This document shows, one piece after another, positions 2,674-10,125 of a stretch of DNA of 64,000 nt. The DNA is from an uncultured Gemmatimonadales bacterium. Its GTDB lineage: Bacteria > Gemmatimonadota > Gemmatimonadetes > Gemmatimonadales > GWC2-71-9. The stretch spans positions 704,001 through 768,000 of the forward strand of contig CAWHFW010000002.1 of the NCBI GenBank assembly GCA_963828735.1, in the 5' to 3' direction. Within the stretch, counting starts at the first letter, position 1. Each line of letters begins with the position of its first letter. The notes beneath the pieces were generated by a model. The model was not told the DNA's origin, made no database searches, and saw only the letters and a list, made by a program, of their open reading frames with translations. Position numbers and translations under genes: made by a program.

Positions 2674-2739
2674 TTCGCCGACAGCGGCCACACGGCGCGA
2701 TCGATTCGCGTGTGTCCCTACATCCTGGAGTGCTGCATG
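2646..2739 (+). repeat. direct repeat copy 1 (partner 3521-3588)
   Basis: GGTCGCCGGGCCTTTGAAG (2646-2664) and CATCCTGGAGTGCTGCATG (2721-2739) both recur exactly. Confidence 0.85.
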
Positions 2740-3537
2740 CACGTTCGTTCGATCCGTCTTCAGACCTTCGCCCTGCCGTCGCTCGCTGCACTCGCGCAAT
2801 CATCCCCGGTCATCGCCCTGGGCTGTGGTGTGTCGAGTGCAGCGGCACAGACGGATACGTACCCGAGGATGGCGGCGATCAGTGAATATCAGATGGAAGA
2901 AAGCGCCGAGATTCAATTGGCGCGAAGCGCCGCCCCAAACTCCATATCCGGCGACGCGACGATCCTGGTTCTGGGACGTCAGGGATACGAGACAGCCGTT
3001 GAGGGCAAGAACGGGTTTGTCTGCATCGTGGCAAGAAGTTGGATGGCCGCGTTCGACTGGCCCGAATTCTGGAACCCGCGAGTGAGAGCCGCCGACTGTA
3101 TGAACCCCCAGTCCGCACGTTCGATATTACCGATCGCTTTGTTGCGCAGCAGGATGGTGATGGCCGGTCGTTCCAAGGCGGAGATCCTATCGGCGGTCAA
3201 AGCGGCGTTCGAGAACAGGCAAGTGCCGAGGTTCGAGAGTGGCGCGATGGATTACATGATGTCGAAATCGGCCTATCTGACCGACGAGGGCGACCACAAC
3301 GCGCCTCATCTGATGTTCCTCACTACCGGCGTCGACGCCAAGGACTGGGGCTCTGGCGCGGCGGGCTCGCCGCTCATGTCGGCCCCCTATTGGTTCTTCT
3401 CGTCGAAGGAACCATCGCGAATGAAAGGGCTGCCACCGATTCTTGTGTTCCTAGTCGGGGTGGCGACTTGGTCCGACGGAACGCCTGTGGGCAAGGATGT
3501 GACTGATGAAGGCGCCGTGCGGTCGCCGGGCCTTTGA
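2737..3537 (+). CDS. hypothetical secreted protein
   Basis: GGAG RBS then ATG 2737; signal-like N-terminus; EIQLARSAAP...GKNGFVCIVARSW...YMMSK...PHLMF. Confidence 0.7.
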   Translation: MHVRSIRLQTFALPSLAALAQSSPVIALGCGVSSAAAQTDTYPRMAAISEYQMEESAEIQLARSAAPNSISGDATILVLGRQGYETAVEGKNGFVCIVARSWMAAFDWPEFWNPRVRAADCMNPQSARSILPIALLRSRMVMAGRSKAEILSAVKAAFENRQVPRFESGAMDYMMSKSAYLTDEGDHNAPHLMFLTTGVDAKDWGSGAAGSPLMSAPYWFFSSKEPSRMKGLPPILVFLVGVATWSDGTPVGKDVTDEGAVRSPGL

Positions 3538-3588
3538 AGTCCGGATAGTTCGACACCTTTGAATCCCGCCATCCTGGAGTGCTGCATG
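3521..3588 (+). repeat. direct repeat copy 2
   Basis: Same two 19-mers at 3521-3539 and 3570-3588. Confidence 0.85.
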
Positions 3589-3600
3589 TGCGGGTTAGGC
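3581..3600 (-). mobile_element. attC remnant (R''/L'' half only)
   Basis: GCTGCATGTGCGGGTTAGGC matches the end of the intact attC repeats. Confidence 0.6.
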
Positions 3601-3654
3601 AACTCGCCCTCGGGACCACCGCAGGCCTGGGACGCCTCGATCTTTTGGGGAGTT

Positions 3655-3795
3655 GCCTTACGGATGCCGCATCAGCTTCAAGCGATTAGGCTTAACATCC
3701 ACACCATTGGACGTTCCGTACCTCATCACCGGAGTTCGGCGCCCGCCTGGCGCCTCACGCGGGACGCGCTTGTCGCCTGCATGCGGGGGTCAGGC
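3655..3795 (-). mobile_element. degenerate full-length attC site
   Basis: GCCTTACGGATGCCGCATCAGCTTCAAGCGA...TGTCGCCTGCATGCGGGGGTCAGGC, 141 bp; both core boxes mutated. Confidence 0.7.
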
Positions 3796-3875
3796 CGCGG
3801 CCAAGCGCGATGCCCACACCAGCGGCGCCAGGAACTGCCGTCGAGCGAATGGTGTTAGAATGACATATGCCTAAC

Positions 3876-4085
3876 ATGACGAAACCCGACCCGCGCCCGC
3901 TGTTCACCCCCAGCACCGTCCCGCAACCCGGTGCGCCCGATCCCGTAGTCGCATTTATCGAAGACGCTCTGCTCGCCATCGCCAACCGCCAGGATGAAGC
4001 GGAGATCCGCGAGCTCCGCGAGGATGAGGCGGTGATCCGTGAGCTCCGCCAGGATGAGGCGGAGATCCCGGAGCCGTCGGCCTAA
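3876..4085 (+). CDS. small hypothetical acidic protein with 10-aa tandem repeats (start 3867 or 3876)
   Basis: QDEAEIRELR/EDEAVIRELR/QDEAEIPEPS; stop TAA lies in the GCCTAAC box. Confidence 0.45.
   Translation: MTKPDPRPLFTPSTVPQPGAPDPVVAFIEDALLAIANRQDEAEIRELREDEAVIRELRQDEAEIPEPSA
3986..4074 (+). repeat. 30-bp tandem repeat, ~3 copies
   Basis: AGGATGAAGCGGAGATCCGCGAGCTCCGC-like unit starting at 3991, 4021 and 4051. Confidence 0.9.
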
Positions 4086-4145
4086 CGGGTTGCAATAAGC
4101 TGCAGGACCTCAAGCCCGCGCCCGCACCACTGAACGATTCCACTC
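4080..4145 (-). mobile_element. truncated attC (R'/L' half)
   Basis: GCCTAACGGGTTGCAATAAGCTGCAGG...CGCGCCCGCACCACTGAACGATTCCACT aligns to the first half of intact repeats; other half absent. Confidence 0.75.
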
Positions 4146-4179
4146 CCTGACTACTAGGAGATCCGAACCAGGAGGCCGT

Positions 4180-4431
4180 ATGGCAAAGGGTCGCGACCAC
4201 CTCAGCGAACCCCACTGCTTTTGAGCGCACCAGCAAGCGGCGCAAGGGGTTCTTGTCGGAGACGCGCGTGAAGCGGGGAACCCGCGTGGTGCACGGCGAC
4301 AAAGAGCTCCTCGAGAAGCTCGGTCGAAACGACCTGTGCCCATGCGGCTCCCGGCGGCGGTTTCAAGCGCTGCTGCCTCGGCAGCGGTAAGTACGACGGG
4401 GTTCTTCGGGACTACTACTTTTAGGGACTGA
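4180..4431 (+). CDS. SEC-C (SecA C-terminal-like) zinc-motif small protein encoded across +1 frameshifts at TTT codons (recoded gene or pseudogene)
   Basis: AGGAGG RBS 4170-4175 and ATG 4180; segments [14 protein letters not shown] / [10 protein letters not shown]...[17 protein letters not shown] / [19 protein letters not shown] / RD*; joins rebuild GRNDxCPCGSxxxFKxCC. Confidence 0.75.
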
Positions 4432-4442
4432 TCGACCAATGG

Positions 4443-4480
4443 AGAGCGGACTCAGCACACGGGTTCGCTCTTTCCTTTTG
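4443..4480 (+). terminator. intrinsic terminator after the SEC-C gene
   Basis: AGAGCGGACTC-loop-GGGTTCGCTCT stem followed by TTCCTTTT. Confidence 0.75.
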
Positions 4481-4488
4481 AGCCGTTC

Positions 4489-4566
4489 GCCTAACGACTT
4501 GCGCATCAGCTGCAGGCCTTCGAGCCCGCGCCCGCCCTGCCTGGCGGCGGCATGCGCGGGTTAGGC
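4489..4566 (-). mobile_element. attC site (short, 78 bp)
   Basis: GCCTAAC...GCGCATCAGCTGCAGG...GCATGCGCGGGTTAGGC. Confidence 0.8.
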
Positions 4567-4587
4567 GGCTGCCGGATCCACCCGCAC

Positions 4588-5007
4588 TTAGTCCCAGGGG
4601 TAGAAGCAATCGTAATTGCGTATAGCCACGATCTTGCCGTTGCGAAGCTCGAAGACCTGCGCGAATCGGGTGCGCAGCTGGGTGCCCGCCCTGAACGGCC
4701 CCGCATCGCGAGCGACTCGACCGCGCCACTCGGCCTCCACCACCACCTTGCTACCACCCGCCATGAGGCCCAACAACTCGAACTCCTGCTCAGCCATCAG
4801 TGCTTGGCCTCGTTGAGCGGCCTCCTGCATGCCCCGGAGGTCGCGACGAGTGCCAGTCGGGAGGAGACGGTTGGGGAATTCCTCTTGGACGACGTCGGGC
4901 GCGAACCACTTCTCCCAGTCAACTGTGGCGGGACCGTGAGCGATGGCAGCGTAGTAGCTGCGGATCACGGCGAGATTCCCAGCTTCTTCAGAGGCAGCAG
5001 CCCTCAC
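4588..5007 (-). CDS. SnoaL-like / NTF2 family protein (gene cassette)
   Basis: NLAVIRSYYAA...FAPDVVQEEFPNRL...KVVVEAEWRG...VFELRNGKIVAIRNYD; flanked by attC sites. Confidence 0.8.
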   Translation of the reverse strand: MRAAASEEAGNLAVIRSYYAAIAHGPATVDWEKWFAPDVVQEEFPNRLLPTGTRRDLRGMQEAAQRGQALMAEQEFELLGLMAGGSKVVVEAEWRGRVARDAGPFRAGTQLRTRFAQVFELRNGKIVAIRNYDCFYPWD

Positions 5008-5026
5008 CGGAGTTCCTTTGGCAGAC

Positions 5027-5168
5027 GCCTAACGGATTGCAAATCAGCTGCAGGCGACGATCTCACCGCCCGCACAAATGAACGCCTCCACTGCTCGGCC
5101 TCGAGGAGAGCCGCGCCCATTTGGAACTCCGGCCACCCCGGCCTGTCGGCTGCATTTGCGGGTTAGGC
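5027..5168 (-). mobile_element. attC site (142 bp)
   Basis: GCCTAACGGATTGCAAATCAGCTGCAGGCG...GCCTGTCGGCTGCATTTGCGGGTTAGGC. Confidence 0.9.
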
Positions 5169-5186
5169 TGCAGCGGGCCGTGCGGC

Positions 5187-5438
5187 TCATGGGTGTGGCG
5201 CTTGGTCCGGGTGCTTCGCCCAGTAGAGTACGTCCTGATACTTGTGCTGGGCCGCGGCGAGGAAGTAGCCCAGACGGCCGAGATTGCCGCCACTCAGGGC
5301 GAGCATCGCACGCCGTACATGCTCGACATCACGCTCATGTGGCGACATGCCATACTGCGACAGCATCACGTGCGCTTGGCGCCGGTCGGCCGGGGCGAAG
5401 CGCTCGGCGAGTTCGTGTTCGAGAGCTGCTGAGAGCAT
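5187..5438 (-). CDS. small hypothetical protein (gene cassette)
   Basis: MLSAALEHELAERF...EHVRRAMLALSGGNLGRL...YQDVLYWA; lies between attC sites. Confidence 0.6.
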   Translation of the reverse strand: MLSAALEHELAERFAPADRRQAHVMLSQYGMSPHERDVEHVRRAMLALSGGNLGRLGYFLAAAQHKYQDVLYWAKHPDQAPHP

Positions 5439-5450
5439 GTGTGTCAAAGT

Positions 5451-5523
5451 ACGCTTCGAGGGACGGGGCGCCCGAGCGGAGCTCGGGACCACCTCCGGCC
5501 GTCGCTGCATGCGCGGGTTAGGC
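5451..5523 (-). mobile_element. degenerate/partial attC (R''/L'' half)
   Basis: CCGGCCGTCGCTGCATGCGCGGGTTAGGC at the end; GCCTAAC half missing. Confidence 0.65.
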
Positions 5524-5549
5524 CCCATTCACACCGGGAAGTCCGCTCG

Positions 5550-6008
5550 TTACCCGAGACGGGTGTACGTGAGCTGGAGGTCTGGCTCCCAGCGGTCACC
5601 ACGATTCAACTCGCCCTGCCCCACCATGCGCTTGCCCCCATCGACAAGTCTACCGGTAAATCGTTGAGAGAAGCCAGGAGTGTCACGCCACCACTGCCAC
5701 TGGTCGCTGCGCAGCGCAACGGCGTAGCGCAGCGAAACCCCCCGCTCGTCGAAATACAACATGGAACATTCCTTGGCATCGTCGTCGGTGCCGAAGATCC
5801 CGATGCCACTTGGAATGTCTGGTTCGTCGATCTCCGAGCGCATGACGAGGAAAGCCCCGCCGTCGGACCACGGGAAGCTGGTGCGACCATGAAGAGTTTT
5901 GCCCGGCAACATGGGGTGCGAGCCTTCAGTGCGCCATTCGCCGACAAGGAAGTCAAGAGGCTTCAGGGCCGGGTTTGGAATGGCAGCTTCGTAGCCGATA
6001 ATAGCCAT
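5550..6008 (-). CDS. hypothetical protein, possibly DUF1579-like beta-barrel (gene cassette)
   Basis: LKPLDFLVGEWRTEG...MLYFDERGVS...FSQRFTG...DLQLTYTR. Confidence 0.7.
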   Translation of the reverse strand: MAIIGYEAAIPNPALKPLDFLVGEWRTEGSHPMLPGKTLHGRTSFPWSDGGAFLVMRSEIDEPDIPSGIGIFGTDDDAKECSMLYFDERGVSLRYAVALRSDQWQWWRDTPGFSQRFTGRLVDGGKRMVGQGELNRGDRWEPDLQLTYTRLG

Positions 6009-6066
6009 GCGACACAGTACCGAAGATGAGGGGAGTGTGGCCGGATGCGGATCCGGGGTGAATGCG

Positions 6067-6210
6067 GCCCAACGGATTGCAAATCAGCTGCAGGCGATCA
6101 GCCTCGCGCCCGCACCAATCAACGCTTCCACTGTTTGGCCTCGAGGAGCGCCGGCGCCCGGGCGGAGCGCGGGCCCGCTCCGGCCTGTCGGCTGCATTTG
6201 CGGGTTAGGC
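6067..6210 (-). mobile_element. attC site (144 bp)
   Basis: GCCCAACGGATTGCAAATCAGCTGCAGGCG...GCCTGTCGGCTGCATTTGCGGGTTAGGC. Confidence 0.9.
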
Positions 6211-6244
6211 GGCGCAATCGCACGCGGCGAGCTCCGACGCGCGT

Positions 6245-7753
6245 TCAATGTGCTTTGGCATACGCCTGGGCTCCGCGCAGCAGGTGGTCAAGATCCTTCC
6301 GCGTCAGGAGGTGTCCGTTCACGACGACCGCCCGAATGCGGGAGGCGTTGTGGACGTCCGTGAGCGGATTCGCGTCGAGTAGCACGAGATCGGCGAGCTG
6401 GCCAACGGCGATGCTACCCAGCGAGTCGGTCGCCTGGAGGAACCGGGTCGGAGCCGTGGTGGCTGCGGCTACGGCGGATCGCGGTGACAGCCCCGCCTCG
6501 ACGAGGGCGGAGATCTCCTCGTGTAGGCTGAACCCGGGGTAGACGTGGGGATCGAGCACGTCTGAGCCTGCCAGCAGCGGCACCCCGGCGCGCCCCATCG
6601 CCGCGACGATACGAAGGGAGCCGCCATACAGTTCCTGGAGGCTCGCGAAGTCTTCGCTCGACATGTCCTTGAGGCGGTCGTCGTTGCGGGGGTCCCATTC
6701 CCACCGGAGCTTGGTCGTGGCGTAGCGCAGATAGGGATCGCGGCTGGCGTCGTATTCCTTCACCCAAGCGATGCTGCGCAGCGTAACCAGAGTCGGCACC
6801 TGCCAGGTGTCGTTCTGCACGAGCCGCGCGAAGTACGGCTGGCAGGCTGCCTCGTCGAATGTGCTGACGCCGAGGTGGTTGATGGCGCGCGTCAGCATCG
6901 CGCGGTGCGTCGCGGAGGTGTCGCGCGCCCGCGTGGCGCGGAGCGAGAGGACAGAATCGGGCTGGCTGGTGCACTCCCGGCTGGCGCCCTGCAGGTGCTC
7001 GATGCTGCGTTGCCCCGAGTCCGAGACATCGCGCGGGCTCACACCGGCCGGCACGTGCCCCGCAACCGGCAGCCCGTTCGCGCGCGCGGCCCGGAGGAGC
7101 GCGAAGTAGGCCTCTGGCAGAATGTCGCCGATGACCTTGATGAAGTCGGCACCCTGCTCCTTGGCGTGCCGGACCGCAGCTATGGCGTCGGCGCTGTCCC
7201 GAACGGCATGGGTCCCTGGAAAGGGCGGCGGCTTGGCCCCCCTGAGAGCGTTCCCCGCCACGACGAGGCGCGGACCCAATAGCGTGCCGGCGGCAATGTC
7301 GTGCTTCCATGTCCGCACCACCGATGCGGGCGGGGCCACACCGGCCGAGTCGGTCCCGGCACAGATGCTCTCGCAATCACCCCACATGTCGCGGAGGCCA
7401 GTGACACCGTTGGCGAGGTACAGCGGGAACATCAGCGAGCGGGTCGTAGAATCGTCGGGCAGGTGCGCGTGCATGTCCCAGAGGCCGGGGAGGAGGAACT
7501 TGCCATTAGCAGCGACCACACGGCTGCCCGCTGGGACGTCGAGGGTCGCCGACGGGCCGAGGCCGACAATGCGACTGCCCCTGATGACGACACTCTGATC
7601 CACCAGCGATGGACTGTCGGACATGGTTAGGACAGTCACGTGTGTGAACACGACCGGAGGGACGGCCTGTTGAGCCAAAAGGCCGGTCGCAGGTGCAACG
7701 CTTGCAACACACAGAACAGCGTTCGCCGTAATGTTCCAGGATCGCATTCGCAT
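6245..7753 (-). CDS. secreted amidohydrolase family protein (gene cassette; start approximate)
   Basis: FLLPGLWDMHAH, GADFIKV, SIEHL, LLAGSD, GSIAVGQLADLVLLDANPL. Confidence 0.9.
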   Translation of the reverse strand: MRMRSWNITANAVLCVASVAPATGLLAQQAVPPVVFTHVTVLTMSDSPSLVDQSVVIRGSRIVGLGPSATLDVPAGSRVVAANGKFLLPGLWDMHAHLPDDSTTRSLMFPLYLANGVTGLRDMWGDCESICAGTDSAGVAPPASVVRTWKHDIAAGTLLGPRLVVAGNALRGAKPPPFPGTHAVRDSADAIAAVRHAKEQGADFIKVIGDILPEAYFALLRAARANGLPVAGHVPAGVSPRDVSDSGQRSIEHLQGASRECTSQPDSVLSLRATRARDTSATHRAMLTRAINHLGVSTFDEAACQPYFARLVQNDTWQVPTLVTLRSIAWVKEYDASRDPYLRYATTKLRWEWDPRNDDRLKDMSSEDFASLQELYGGSLRIVAAMGRAGVPLLAGSDVLDPHVYPGFSLHEEISALVEAGLSPRSAVAAATTAPTRFLQATDSLGSIAVGQLADLVLLDANPLTDVHNASRIRAVVVNGHLLTRKDLDHLLRGAQAYAKAH

Positions 7754-7773
7754 CATCACTCCGGAGGGGGTCC

Positions 7774-7915
7774 GCCTAACGGATTGCAAATCAGCTGCAG
7801 GCGATCATCTTACCGCCCGCACAAGTCAACGCTTCCTCTGCTCGGCCACAGGTGCGCTGCGCCCGCGAGGAGCGCCGGCCCGCCCCAGCCTGTCGGCTGC
7901 ATTTGCGGGTTAGGC
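7774..7915 (-). mobile_element. attC site (142 bp)
   Basis: Same consensus; TAA stop of the preceding cassette gene lies in the R'' box. Confidence 0.9.
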
Positions 7916-8497
7916 GGCGCCGTCGATAATCTTTAGTGCTTCTCGGTTCTCGAGCCTCAGCCAATAGATCGTTTGGGTGACTGCTCCAACGATATCGTAA
8001 AACTCTGACTGAAATGGGATAGCCATGTACTCGTGTTCCATCCAGCGCGAGTACTCTTCAGTCTTGTCGCGATGCGTATGAGCCAAGCCGCCATAGAGAA
8101 AGACGTCAAGAATTCGGCGGCGACTCACCGGTTGCTTCTGCCAGACAATCGGGCTTTCCCGGTCCAGGTAGGTGTTCATCTTGTTTCGAATCCCCGAGAC
8201 GCGGTCGGTTAACGAGGCTAGTTCGGGCGCATCGGCGTAGAGCGCCGCGAGGCGGCGAATCGAAATTGGCTCGTTGTCTTGGATGAAGAGTCGAAACGTC
8301 AGAACAAAGGCATCCACCTCATCCACGGTAGCAAGATCGCCAGTAACCTGCATGGGTTTGCCGACGCGGCCCTCGAACTTGTACGAACCCTTGCCGGCTC
8401 TCAGGGCAGCTAGGAACTGCAGCCCATTAAGTTTTTCGGCCTTCTCGTTGAAGAGCCGGAGGGTCCGGCGGACATCGCTTAGGTCGCTATCAGACAT
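7910..8497 (-). CDS. hypothetical protein, lower GC, possibly HEPN-like (gene cassette)
   Basis: Intact 195-aa ORF exactly between two attC sites; FRLFIQDNEPISIRRL...DVFLYGGLAH. Confidence 0.75.
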   Translation of the reverse strand: MSDSDLSDVRRTLRLFNEKAEKLNGLQFLAALRAGKGSYKFEGRVGKPMQVTGDLATVDEVDAFVLTFRLFIQDNEPISIRRLAALYADAPELASLTDRVSGIRNKMNTYLDRESPIVWQKQPVSRRRILDVFLYGGLAHTHRDKTEEYSRWMEHEYMAIPFQSEFYDIVGAVTQTIYWLRLENREALKIIDGAA

Positions 8498-8509
8498 GGT
8501 CGTGCGTCC

Positions 8510-8652
8510 GCCTAACGGATTGCAAATCAACTGCAGGCGATCACCTTCACGCCCACACTAATCAACGCTTCCACTGCTGGGCCTACCGGAGGGCCGCGCC
8601 CGCACAGAGCTCCGGCCCGCCCCGGCCTGTCGGCTGCATGCGCGGGTTAGGC
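8510..8652 (-). mobile_element. attC site (143 bp)
   Basis: GCCTAACGGATTGCAAATCAACTGCAGGCG...GTCGGCTGCATGCGCGGGTTAGGC. Confidence 0.9.
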
Positions 8653-8680
8653 AGCAGCCCGGGCGAGTCCACCCATCGCC

Positions 8681-9358
8681 TCACCAAAGGCCCGGCACGA
8701 GCCGGGAGCGAACGCGCCCCGCATACTCCGTATACGCCGGCAGCGCTTGGACCAGTACCCGCTCCTCCAACACGAGGCGCAGGGCGAGCAAGCCGATCGG
8801 AATGAGCGCTACCCCGAGACCGATCGGCGAGCGGAGCCAGATGGGAACCCCCAGCAGCGCCGCCACTAGGCCGGCATACATCGGGTGGCGCACCACACCG
8901 TAGACGCCCGCGTCCACCACGGTGTGTCTGCGCTCCGGTTGATGACGCACGACGGTCGTGGCATAGGCGTTCGTTTCGAGCGCGCGCATGACGAGCATCC
9001 ATCCCACAGCGAAGAAGGCGAGCCCGAACCAGGCGAGCATCGGTGATAGGGCCGTCGCCCAGCGCCAGCGTTGCCGGTCCAGTCCCGTCAGCACCAATTC
9101 ACCTGCGTAGGAAGCCATGAAGGCCAGGAGGAGGATCTTGTCCGACAGCGGCTGGCCGGGCTGCCACGGTCCCTTGGCCCGCTCGGGCAGCAGGCCTGGG
9201 TTGGCTCGAACAATCCGGACGGTGCCAATCATGTGGATCACGAGGTAAAGGCCAACGAGTACCCAGGCGCGCCCCCAACTCCAGGCGCCCGTAGGGCCGA
9301 GGAGGGCGGCACCGAAGAGAAGCGTGGCGAACAAGGTGTTCAAGAGCGCTCGGAACAT
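8681..9358 (-). CDS. isoprenylcysteine carboxyl methyltransferase (ICMT/PEMT) family membrane protein (gene cassette)
   Basis: Multiple TM helices; HTVVDAGVYGVVRHPMYAG, EERVL...YTEY...RLVPGLW. Confidence 0.88.
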   Translation of the reverse strand: MFRALLNTLFATLLFGAALLGPTGAWSWGRAWVLVGLYLVIHMIGTVRIVRANPGLLPERAKGPWQPGQPLSDKILLLAFMASYAGELVLTGLDRQRWRWATALSPMLAWFGLAFFAVGWMLVMRALETNAYATTVVRHQPERRHTVVDAGVYGVVRHPMYAGLVAALLGVPIWLRSPIGLGVALIPIGLLALRLVLEERVLVQALPAYTEYAGRVRSRLVPGLW

Positions 9359-9405
9359 GGTGTTCAGCGGCTTTCCGTGTGCAAGTCGGGGTGCTGGTTG
9401 CTGCT

Positions 9406-9534
9406 GCCTAACGACATGCTAATCAGCTGCAAACGACCTTAGATAACCTACGGTCCGTTGTTGTCGCTGGGAGGGGCGGATGCGGGCGGAGTGCGGCTCC
9501 GCCCGCGTTTGTCGGCTGCATTAGCGGGTTAGGC
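9406..9534 (-). mobile_element. attC site, divergent subtype (129 bp)
   Basis: GCCTAACGACATGCTAATCAGCTGCAAACG...CGTTTGTCGGCTGCATTAGCGGGTTAGGC with compensatory stem changes. Confidence 0.88.
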
Positions 9535-9963
9535 CGCGCGGCGCTCCCAGGCACGCACGCGACCGCGCACCATGCGGAATAGTGGGTGAGCGGCCGGATG
9601 GCGAGTCGTCACCAGCTGTTGGTAACGCTCCGGGGCCCGTTGCCGGAGTTTACTCAACAAGTGCACCCATTCGGCGGCCAATTGTCCTGTAGTTTCCGTA
9701 ATCCGCAGGCCCGAGCGGGCACGCCCGAGCTTTTTCGGGTCGAAAGCGTACCCGCGACGGCAAGCCTCCACGTACACGGCCGCCAGGTACTGGTTCAGAG
9801 ACTCCACCGGACGGGCCTGCTCCCGGAATCGCGTCAGTTGGGGGTGGTGCCGGTAACCCCGGGTGCCGCCGCGGAGCACGGCCCGGGCGAGCAGCGCCTC
9901 GCGCCAGAGAGCCACCAACCCGCGGGCGTCCAGGTATTTTGGGTGCACGGTCCAGAGCCGCAT
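9529..9963 (-). CDS. pyrimidine dimer DNA glycosylase / endonuclease V-like protein (gene cassette)
   Basis: MRLWTVHPKYLDARGLVALWREALLARAVL.G.TRGYRHHPQL. Confidence 0.88.
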   Translation of the reverse strand: MRLWTVHPKYLDARGLVALWREALLARAVLRGGTRGYRHHPQLTRFREQARPVESLNQYLAAVYVEACRRGYAFDPKKLGRARSGLRITETTGQLAAEWVHLLSKLRQRAPERYQQLVTTRHPAAHPLFRMVRGRVRAWERRAA

Positions 9964-9982
9964 TCCTAGATCTCCGGCGTCG

Positions 9983-10125
9983 GCCTAACAGATTGCAAAT
10001 CAGCTGCAGGCGAGCATCTTCACGCCCGCACTATTCGACGCTTCCACTGTTTGGCTACGAGGAGCGTCGGGCCCGCACGGAACGCCGGCCCACCCCGGCC
10101 TGTCGGCTGCATTTGCGGGTTAGGC
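9983..10125 (-). mobile_element. attC site (143 bp), first of the array
   Basis: GCCTAACAGATTGCAAATCAGCTGCAGGCG...GTCGGCTGCATTTGCGGGTTAGGC. Confidence 0.9.

Follow-up and report, generated by a model that had tools for sequence, protein, structure and literature searches.

A Widespread Family of Small SEC-C Proteins Predicted to Require Serial +1 Frame Changes at UUU-Y Codons

A small SEC-C gene in an uncultured Gemmatimonadales bacterium (GWC2-71-9) is almost certainly real and conserved and dependent on serial +1 frame changes. It lies on contig CAWHFW010000002.1 of assembly GCA_963828735.1, within a 64,000-nt stretch (positions 704,001–768,000, forward strand) that was analyzed as a whole and is referred to here as the window. 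Sequence comparison places the gene, as a functional member, in a family of basic SEC-C proteins of roughly 80 aa that is widespread but patchy in its distribution; full synthesis of these proteins is predicted to need two to four, usually three, +1 frame steps. Ribosomal slippage is very probably the route of these steps, and we assign a probability of about 0.6 to the reading that the sites in series form a general conditional stress gate. To our knowledge, programmed frameshifts in bacterial cellular genes are few, with one site per gene; here, about three slips are needed within 250 bases, across a family encoded in at least 574 stretches of GTDB species genomes (574 of the 600 listed).

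The Host Locus

The locus is organized as follows.

4170–4175, + strand: Shine–Dalgarno (SD) sequence AGGAGG, 4 nt 5′ of the ATG, read from the sequence
4180–4224, + strand: segment 1, a 14-codon leader from ATG 4180 to TTT-TGA (4219–4224)
4216–4225, + strand: shift site 1, TGC_TTT_TGA_G, present in 68 of 73 rebuilt genes
4223–4363, + strand: segment 2, 47 codons that encode the basic core and the first part (half) of the SEC-C motif
4358–4367, + strand: shift site 2, CGG_TTT_CAA_G, coinciding with the aromatic residue that is conserved in the motif, present in 69 of 73 genes
4365–4421, + strand: segment 3, the two closing Cys and a DG..R..Y/F tail, 19 codons
4416–4431, + strand: shift site 3, TAC_TTT_TAG, followed by Arg-Asp and a TGA stop that ends at 4431, present in 58 of 73 genes
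about 4441–4479, + strand: terminator-like hairpin with a short T run, −18.7 kcal/mol
4080–4165, no strand assigned: upstream attC-like repeat, left part only, lacking the right arm that the other copies have; repeat families D4 and D7 present, D5 absent
4489–4566, no strand assigned: downstream attC-like repeat, complete (GCCTAAC...GTTAGGC), the bottom strand forming one long hairpin, −24.7 kcal/mol

When the frame is advanced by +1 at each of three in-frame UUU-Y codons (4219, 4361, and 4419), the gene reads as an 82-aa protein with a complete SEC-C motif. The original prediction, made from the letters of the sequence, had foreseen a protein of about 80 aa in which the motif is completed, and its placement of the AGGAGG, the ATG, the three TTT-Y sites, the 47-codon segment, and the terminal Arg-Asp-TGA holds throughout. 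The sequence also agrees with its statement that the middle frame lacks an upstream start codon, as ATG, GTG, and TTG are absent between the upstream stop of the core frame and the junction, and with its observation that every in-frame TTT sits at a frame break, the remaining Phe codon being TTC. If site 2 is left unshifted, a stop is reached at 4388–4390 and the last two Cys are absent. The Pfam SEC-C match improves from E 1.4e-4 (model positions 1–12 of 19) without the shift to 1.9e-7 (1–17 of 19) with it, and SEC-C membership is reached only after shift 2 (31.2 bits vs a Pfam cut-off of 20.4). TTT-Y accounts for 6.8% of Phe codons in the 1318 long ORFs of the host, a rate at which at least three of four Phe codons would be TTT-Y by chance with p about 0.001. 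Family conservation is the stronger argument that the UUU-Y placement is probably nonrandom.

Downstream of the gene, the predicted intrinsic terminator stands as a hairpin followed by a short T run but fails as a consensus call, since a terminator and promoter consensus scan of 3800–4800 gave 0 matches. An Rfam search of the window also returned 0 matches. Folding of the 70 nt 3′ of the stop codon gave z < −2 for 40 of 72 loci and only −1.5 for the host locus.

Family Extent

A query with the 48-aa core retrieved 599 protein matches. Among the best 120 database proteins, 78 run off frame after the Phe of site 2, 35 stop there, and 6 have the two Cys in frame (1 other). With 113 of these 120 matches ending at site 2 or leaving the frame there, the family is mis-annotated wherever it is present. 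The most nearly whole natural ORF, used as a query, gave a complete in-frame C-terminus in 1 of its best 120 matches.

For locus analysis, the 80 best GTDB stretches were taken, and the sample therefore leans toward close relatives of the core. The locus set numbers 85 (L001–L087 without L006 and L007, which repeat L004 and L002). The 73 genes rebuilt from it span 15 phylum-level groups, with 7 lacking a phylum assignment. Distribution is patchy: a copy is carried by 3 of the 60 host-genus genomes and by 6 of the 121 from the genus to which L013 belongs. Cultured carriers include Caulobacter vibrioides OR37, Chthoniobacter flavus, and Sphingobium aquiterrae. Among viral sequences, only 3 of 80 loci (L085–L087) were accepted as family members; named phages yielded only pieces of YecA, and plasmids gave 2 unannotated matches.

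Frame Tests Across Loci

Rule-free block finding located the core in 77 of the 85 loci, and all best offsets were 0 or +1, never −1. The Cys pair lies at +1 in 68 of these loci and at 0 in 9, and the DG block at +1 in 19 and at 0 in 57 (missing in 1). Of the 77 loci, 73 have an SD-backed start, whose best offset is +1 in 68 and 0 in 5. Of the 9 loci without site 2, 7 have a break before the DG block, vs 12 of the 67 that have the site.

A single rule, in which any in-frame TTT-Y is read as Phe and followed by a +1 step, could be applied to 79 of the 85 loci (four had no core and two no start). It rebuilds the whole protein in 73 of 79, whereas the control rules TTTR, TTCY, CTTY, CCCY, and no shift each rebuild 0 of 79, and the partial rules TTTT alone and TTTC alone rebuild 9 and 25 of 79, respectively. 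Three steps are taken in 57 of the rebuilt genes, two in 12, and four in 4, for a total of 211, all of which are UUU-Y by construction of the rule. The six failures comprise a contig end (L008), a CUU-C variant (L035), a missed start (L081), two loci where TTT-TTC must be read in frame (L042 and L086), and a break without TTT-Y (L056).

A further 34 loci were treated in the same way. Eleven had no core by pattern and 17 of the 23 tested pass, one of these (L167) being a repeat of L013; 0 are whole without a shift. Among the failures and pattern misses are breaks at CUU-C, UUG-U, UAU-U, and UUU-G, a core that contains one UUU-C read in frame, one locus without a stop after the last shift, one contig end, one SecA gene, and six loci with extra breaks elsewhere. 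Exceptions to UUU-Y are thus CUU-C at three loci and UUG-U, UAU-U, UUU-G, and UUC-A at one each, and in-frame UUU-Y must stay unshifted at three loci (L042, L086, and L180).

The comparison of homologues suggested by the original prediction found the TTT-Y breaks kept at the same positions across 15 phylum-level groups. Its view that the breaks are unlikely to be random decay is borne out by the recurrence of the same Phe codons across phyla, steps of +1 and not −1, and purifying selection downstream. Two of its reservations can be dropped. The second shift had been thought ambiguous by a few codons, and the family fixes it at site 2 (69 of 73); the third had been called the least supported and proves well supported, as detailed below.

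Two variations in layout were seen. In L035, L083, and L173, the frame continues unbroken through site 2 and breaks immediately downstream of the two Cys, where CUU-C is the simplest position. Five rebuilt genes lack site 1 (L033, L044, L058, L063, and L068), and all five lie in tRNA arrays or share array neighbors.

Selection on the Reconstructed Protein

Values of pN/pS were computed as pairwise, uncorrected averages over related sequences. For segment 2, the core, pN/pS is 0.20 in the proposed frame vs 1.9–2.0 in the other two, and for segment 3 it is 0.39 vs 1.2–1.3; nonproposed frames overall range from 0.9 to 2.8. The leader has a pN/pS of 0.92 and is therefore under little constraint at the protein level. 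The four Cys and the Ser of the SEC-C motif, including both closing Cys, are invariant in 73 of 73 genes.

The third shift is supported by the residues that follow it. The last two residues have a pN/pS of 0.24 in the proposed frame, and the Arg after site 3 is found in 97% of rows. This Arg is encoded by AGR in 43 of 46 cases vs 109 of 848 other Arg codons, a choice by which the A-site codon becomes UAG or CAG. Several loci without site 3 end in the same residues, in frame.

Site 2b requires 13 changes for 14 rows, no fewer than shuffles, on a tree that was built from the 132-nt core and is mostly unresolved (7 of 70 branches starred). A trade-off between site 2b and site 3 has a Fisher p of 3.6e-6, in which kin are not independent, and is not significant over independent pairs (p 0.125).

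Context of the Shift Sites

TTT is preceded by C at 65 of the 68 first sites and at 56 of the 60 last sites, and a C in this position would disfavor a −1 slip. The A-site codon is most often TGA (32) or CGA (21) at the 68 copies of site 1 and CAA (53) or TAA (10) at the 69 copies of site 2. Over all 211 steps, stop codons are represented by TGA (39), TAG (37), and TAA (10), and the rest are sense codons, including CAA, CGA, CAG, and UUU. Host usage of CAA and CGA is 2.4 and 6.4 per 1000 codons, respectively; their presence in the A site is partly forced by the Lys and Glu that follow.

An SD-like word within 16 nt 5′ of the shift was found at 16 of 68 copies of site 1 and 10 of 69 of site 2, and at 0 of 14 and 0 of 60 of the others. 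The alignment revealed no conserved nucleotide element beyond the codons of the protein itself, and no upstream operator or sigma-54 motif is shared among the loci. UUU-Y alone is no signal, because 852 of 1318 long host ORFs carry TTT-Y in frame (1560 codons); context or condition must therefore matter.

Product and Neighbors

Confidence in the predicted structure is limited to the metal knuckle (pLDDT about 80 at residues 41–60 only; mean 58.9). A model of a nearly whole natural homologue (pTM 0.38) had no structural match at Z ≥ 2 among 48,161 chains, a result that is silent on fold novelty. SEC-C matches to solved SecA and YchJ peptides were obtained, and structure matches in the Atlas were to SEC-C clusters only. 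According to the accessible part of 10.1101/613315, SecA-like domains bind ribosomes and prefer iron. As the least certain element of our account, and by analogy, the product might bind Zn or Fe, with the basic arm and SecA-like domain contacting the ribosome or RNA during translation stress.

The neighbor scan covered 261 predicted neighbors at 82 loci, and tRNAs were scanned at all 85. RtcB, RtcR, TROVE, Hen1, or Thg1 adjoins 8 of 85 loci and at least three tRNA genes occur at 7, so that repair genes or tRNA arrays are found at 12 of 85 taken together. The gene rsgA occurs at 2 of 85 and the end of an rRNA operon at 1. About 15 of 85 loci thus have an RNA-repair, tRNA-array, rsgA, or rRNA context and about 70 have unrelated neighbors, counts that come without a background rate. 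The host gene stands alone, with no link to rtcB, rtcR, TROVE, or a tRNA array, and no RtcB was found in the host genome (97.5% complete). The host has miaA, miaB, and a frameshifted prfB, and its single tRNA-Phe has A37 and a normal 7-base loop.

Other features were observed beside family genes. Genes for tRNA-Phe with G37 adjoin the family gene in L044 (2344–2418), L068 (240–314), and L085 (1461–1534 and 1620–1695); G37 tRNA-Phe in arrays goes unmentioned in the searched portion of PMC8421152. The copies on viral contigs L085 and L087 lie among 12 and 5 tRNA genes, respectively, and L085 also carries three tRNA-Phe genes and an EF-Tu-like gene. A neighbor of about 240 aa recurs at L033, L044, L058, and L051 (starts 3077, 3065, 3176, and 6182), with no Pfam match in the two copies scanned. 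An apparent cluster of 5S rRNA-like neighbors was rejected as an artefact of ORFs overlapping the gene itself; among 20 loci scanned, only L045 follows a 5S rRNA.

Relation to Known Systems

Each site appears to work like that of prfB (CUU_UGA_C), where the ribosome likewise slips +1 on a pyrimidine run that precedes a slow A-site codon (often UGA), with conservation across phyla. Two defining prfB features are missing. Whereas prfB has one site and a hyper-conserved SD-like stimulator and senses its own product, the family has two to four UUU-Y sites, no conserved SD-like element, A-site codons that also include UAG, CAA, and CGA, and a product that is not a release factor. Judged by prfB-type features, the slippery P-site codon was found (73 of 79), and the SD-like element and the RF2 stop UGA-C were not. 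The host prfB retains its CTT-TGA-C site; in this gene (L252), TTT precedes CTT-TGA-C, and no AGGGGG-type element is evident. A tRNA-Phe version of the prfB site exists in 21 genomes, as reported in the accessible part of PMC12421855.

Many copies of site 1 share C_UUU_CG, with no evident stimulator, with the UCC_UUU_CGU of influenza PA-X and amalgaviruses (PMC5009743, in part). Those are eukaryotic viruses in which one site yields a second product, whereas in the family the slips are needed for the only conserved product. The exact site-2 context, UUU-CAA, is where tRNA-Phe slips +1 in Salmonella frameshift-suppressor mutants, according to the available text of PMC3617221; there it is an engineered test site, and here natural genes depend on the shifts. 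Multiple conserved frameshifts in coding genes are also known from Euplotes and Perkinsus mitochondria, where the sources, available in part, describe frameshifting as common genome-wide; in contrast, ordinary genes of our host read UUU-Y in frame.

The CXCX8CC spacing, conserved Ser, and aromatic residue are those of the SEC-C domain (PF02810) of SecA, YecA, and YchJ. Unlike in these proteins, the family SEC-C stands alone on a basic arm without Pfam or structural match, and a frameshift splits the motif internally. The portion of PMC8421152 consulted describes long tRNA arrays with rtcB that are induced by translational stress, as in the Anabaena trn operon. A minority of family copies lie in such arrays or beside rtcB, while most, including that of the host, are alone. 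The main text of PMC8421152, as far as available, does not mention SEC-C or a frameshift, and SEC-C is absent from the main text and two of three supplements of PMC3711429. A search of titles and abstract openings, in which subscription journals are mostly outside coverage, found no description of the family.

A Conditional Gate and Its Alternatives

In the favored reading, with its probability of about 0.6, a peptidyl-tRNA-Phe on UUU would slip to the overlapping UUU or UUC while the A site holds a stop codon (UGA, UAG, or UAA) or a rare codon (CGA or CAA). A slow A site of this kind looks at least as important as the tRNA. As no SD stimulator is present, each slip should be rare in healthy cells, and sites in series would form an AND gate with an output of about p cubed. 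The gate would open when termination, tRNA supply, or P-site grip is impaired, and a failed slip would leave either a short product or a motif that lacks the final two Cys. Such conditions have precedent in the available text of PMC3617221, where a low level of Gln-tRNA lets tRNA-Phe slip +1 at UUU-CAA and slippage in the P site is promoted by loss of ms2/ms2io6 at A37; in the prfB context, UUU_U is much weaker than CUU_U (PMC5009743, in part). If the series is a stress gate, the family would offer a naturally occurring sensor that takes several inputs on translation quality, and could serve directly as a reporter of how tRNA modification, release factors, and antibiotics affect the reading frame.

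More tentatively, and with rather less than even odds, the family may count decoding failures, each of two to four unstimulated +1 sites being opened by a different shortage to give a steep switch. The inputs would be RF2 at UGA, RF1 at UAG, tRNA-Gln at CAA, tRNA-Arg at CGA, and a loose tRNA-Phe, and the output a ribosome-binding metal protein made only in a translation crisis. Hydrophobic C-termini tend to make proteins unstable and charged ones to be protective; the last slip may exchange an end of the first kind for one of the second. Where present, G37 tRNA-Phe from stress arrays may be the trigger.

The slips could instead be programmed and constitutive, the series only keeping a potent or harmful small protein very low, as for PA-X, and sensing nothing. 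This is unlikely. It would suit the lack of an SD or other stimulator, the unrelated neighbors at most loci, and the frequent site-1 form (U/C)(G/C)C_UUU_CGA, akin to the PA-X site UCC_UUU_CGU, which works at a very low rate with no evident stimulator (PMC5009743, in part). However, three unstimulated slips at an assumed 1% or so each would yield about 1e-6, a level difficult to reconcile with purifying selection; strong SD sites are retained, a weak promoter would cut the dose more simply, and some loci sit in RNA-repair operons and tRNA arrays. Nor do we favor a specific sensor of the state of tRNA-Phe, a quite improbable reading in which the signal would be the loss of ms2i6A37 (through the Fe–S enzyme MiaB without iron) or G37 tRNA-Phe from a stress-induced array, with an iron-binding ribosome factor as the product. 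In its favor, UUU-Y is used at all 211 steps of the 73 rebuilt genes (as the rule dictates), the host has both miaA and miaB, four adjoining tRNA-Phe genes carry G37 (L044, L068, and two in L085), and SecA-like domains prefer iron (10.1101/613315, in part). Against it stand the CUU-C variant at three loci, selection that favors a stop codon or CAG as the A-site codon, the A37 and 7-base loop of the host tRNA-Phe, and the 261 neighbors, among which no link to iron genes stood out. The original prediction of stress- or slippage-dependent synthesis accordingly stands as to the frame layout; its narrow form, a sensor of tRNA-Phe position 37, does not, given CUU-C, unshifted UUU-Y, and the commonness of TTT-Y.

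Removal of one U at the RNA level, by RNA polymerase slippage or editing, would make the same protein; the DNA comparison is compatible with such a route because deleting one T per run gives an identical product. We consider it very unlikely, as many sites have only three T (TTT-C: CAA 56, CGA 28), a run that is short for RNA polymerase slippage, the phase is tied to the Phe codon, and the synonymous Arg choice tracks the A-site codon. In addition, RNA-library contigs bridge site 1 gap-free (X1 record 1; X3 record 9, repeated by X4), although these come from relatives, do not span the gene, fail the 31-base rule at both site 2 and site 3, and, as contigs, drop rare variants and may contain DNA. 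Pseudogene decay, sequencing error, or use of the middle segment alone from an internal start is extremely improbable: extra breaks away from UUU do occur in some metagenome loci (L087, L190, L193, L195, L196, L198, and L209) and some relatives have a Met just 5′ of the basic motif, but the same breaks recur in records not labeled as metagenome-assembled (L013, L015, L039, and L060) and in 15 phylum-level groups, the sequence 3′ of the breaks is under purifying selection, and just 1 of the 120 best matches to the most nearly whole natural ORF completes the C-terminus in frame. A four-base suppressor tRNA-Phe, or an attenuation leader for downstream genes, is hardly credible. A few copies lie inside RNA-repair operons (L018, L028, and L051), but the host tRNA-Phe loop is normal and ordinary genes use TTT-Y freely, and attenuation is at odds with a next gene on the opposite strand in 38 of 72 loci and, in the host, with a copy followed by a hairpin and an attC-like site.

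The attC-like Array

The host gene is flanked by attC-like repeats, a half one upstream and a complete one downstream, a setting that the original prediction had missed. The repeats belong to an array at 2716–10125 with 7 complete members by pattern and 10 right arms by repeat search. Viewed as an integron cassette, whose flanks would be attC sites (RYYYAAC...GTTRRRY, with a bottom-strand hairpin), the gene has a complete downstream site and an upstream site without its right arm, and neither has a covariance-model match (Rfam 0 in the window). The best integron integrase score in the host genome (TIGR02249) is 94.4 vs a cut-off of 265, and the array fits an integrase-less attC cluster.

The upstream attC-like site joins the gene just before the SD sequence (4080–4169), where the genus relatives L002–L005 have their own upstream hairpin. 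The host copy therefore seems to have lost its native upstream region. Just upstream, a 72-aa ORF at 3867–4085, for which no Pfam match was found, contains three 29-nt repeats at a 30-nt spacing.
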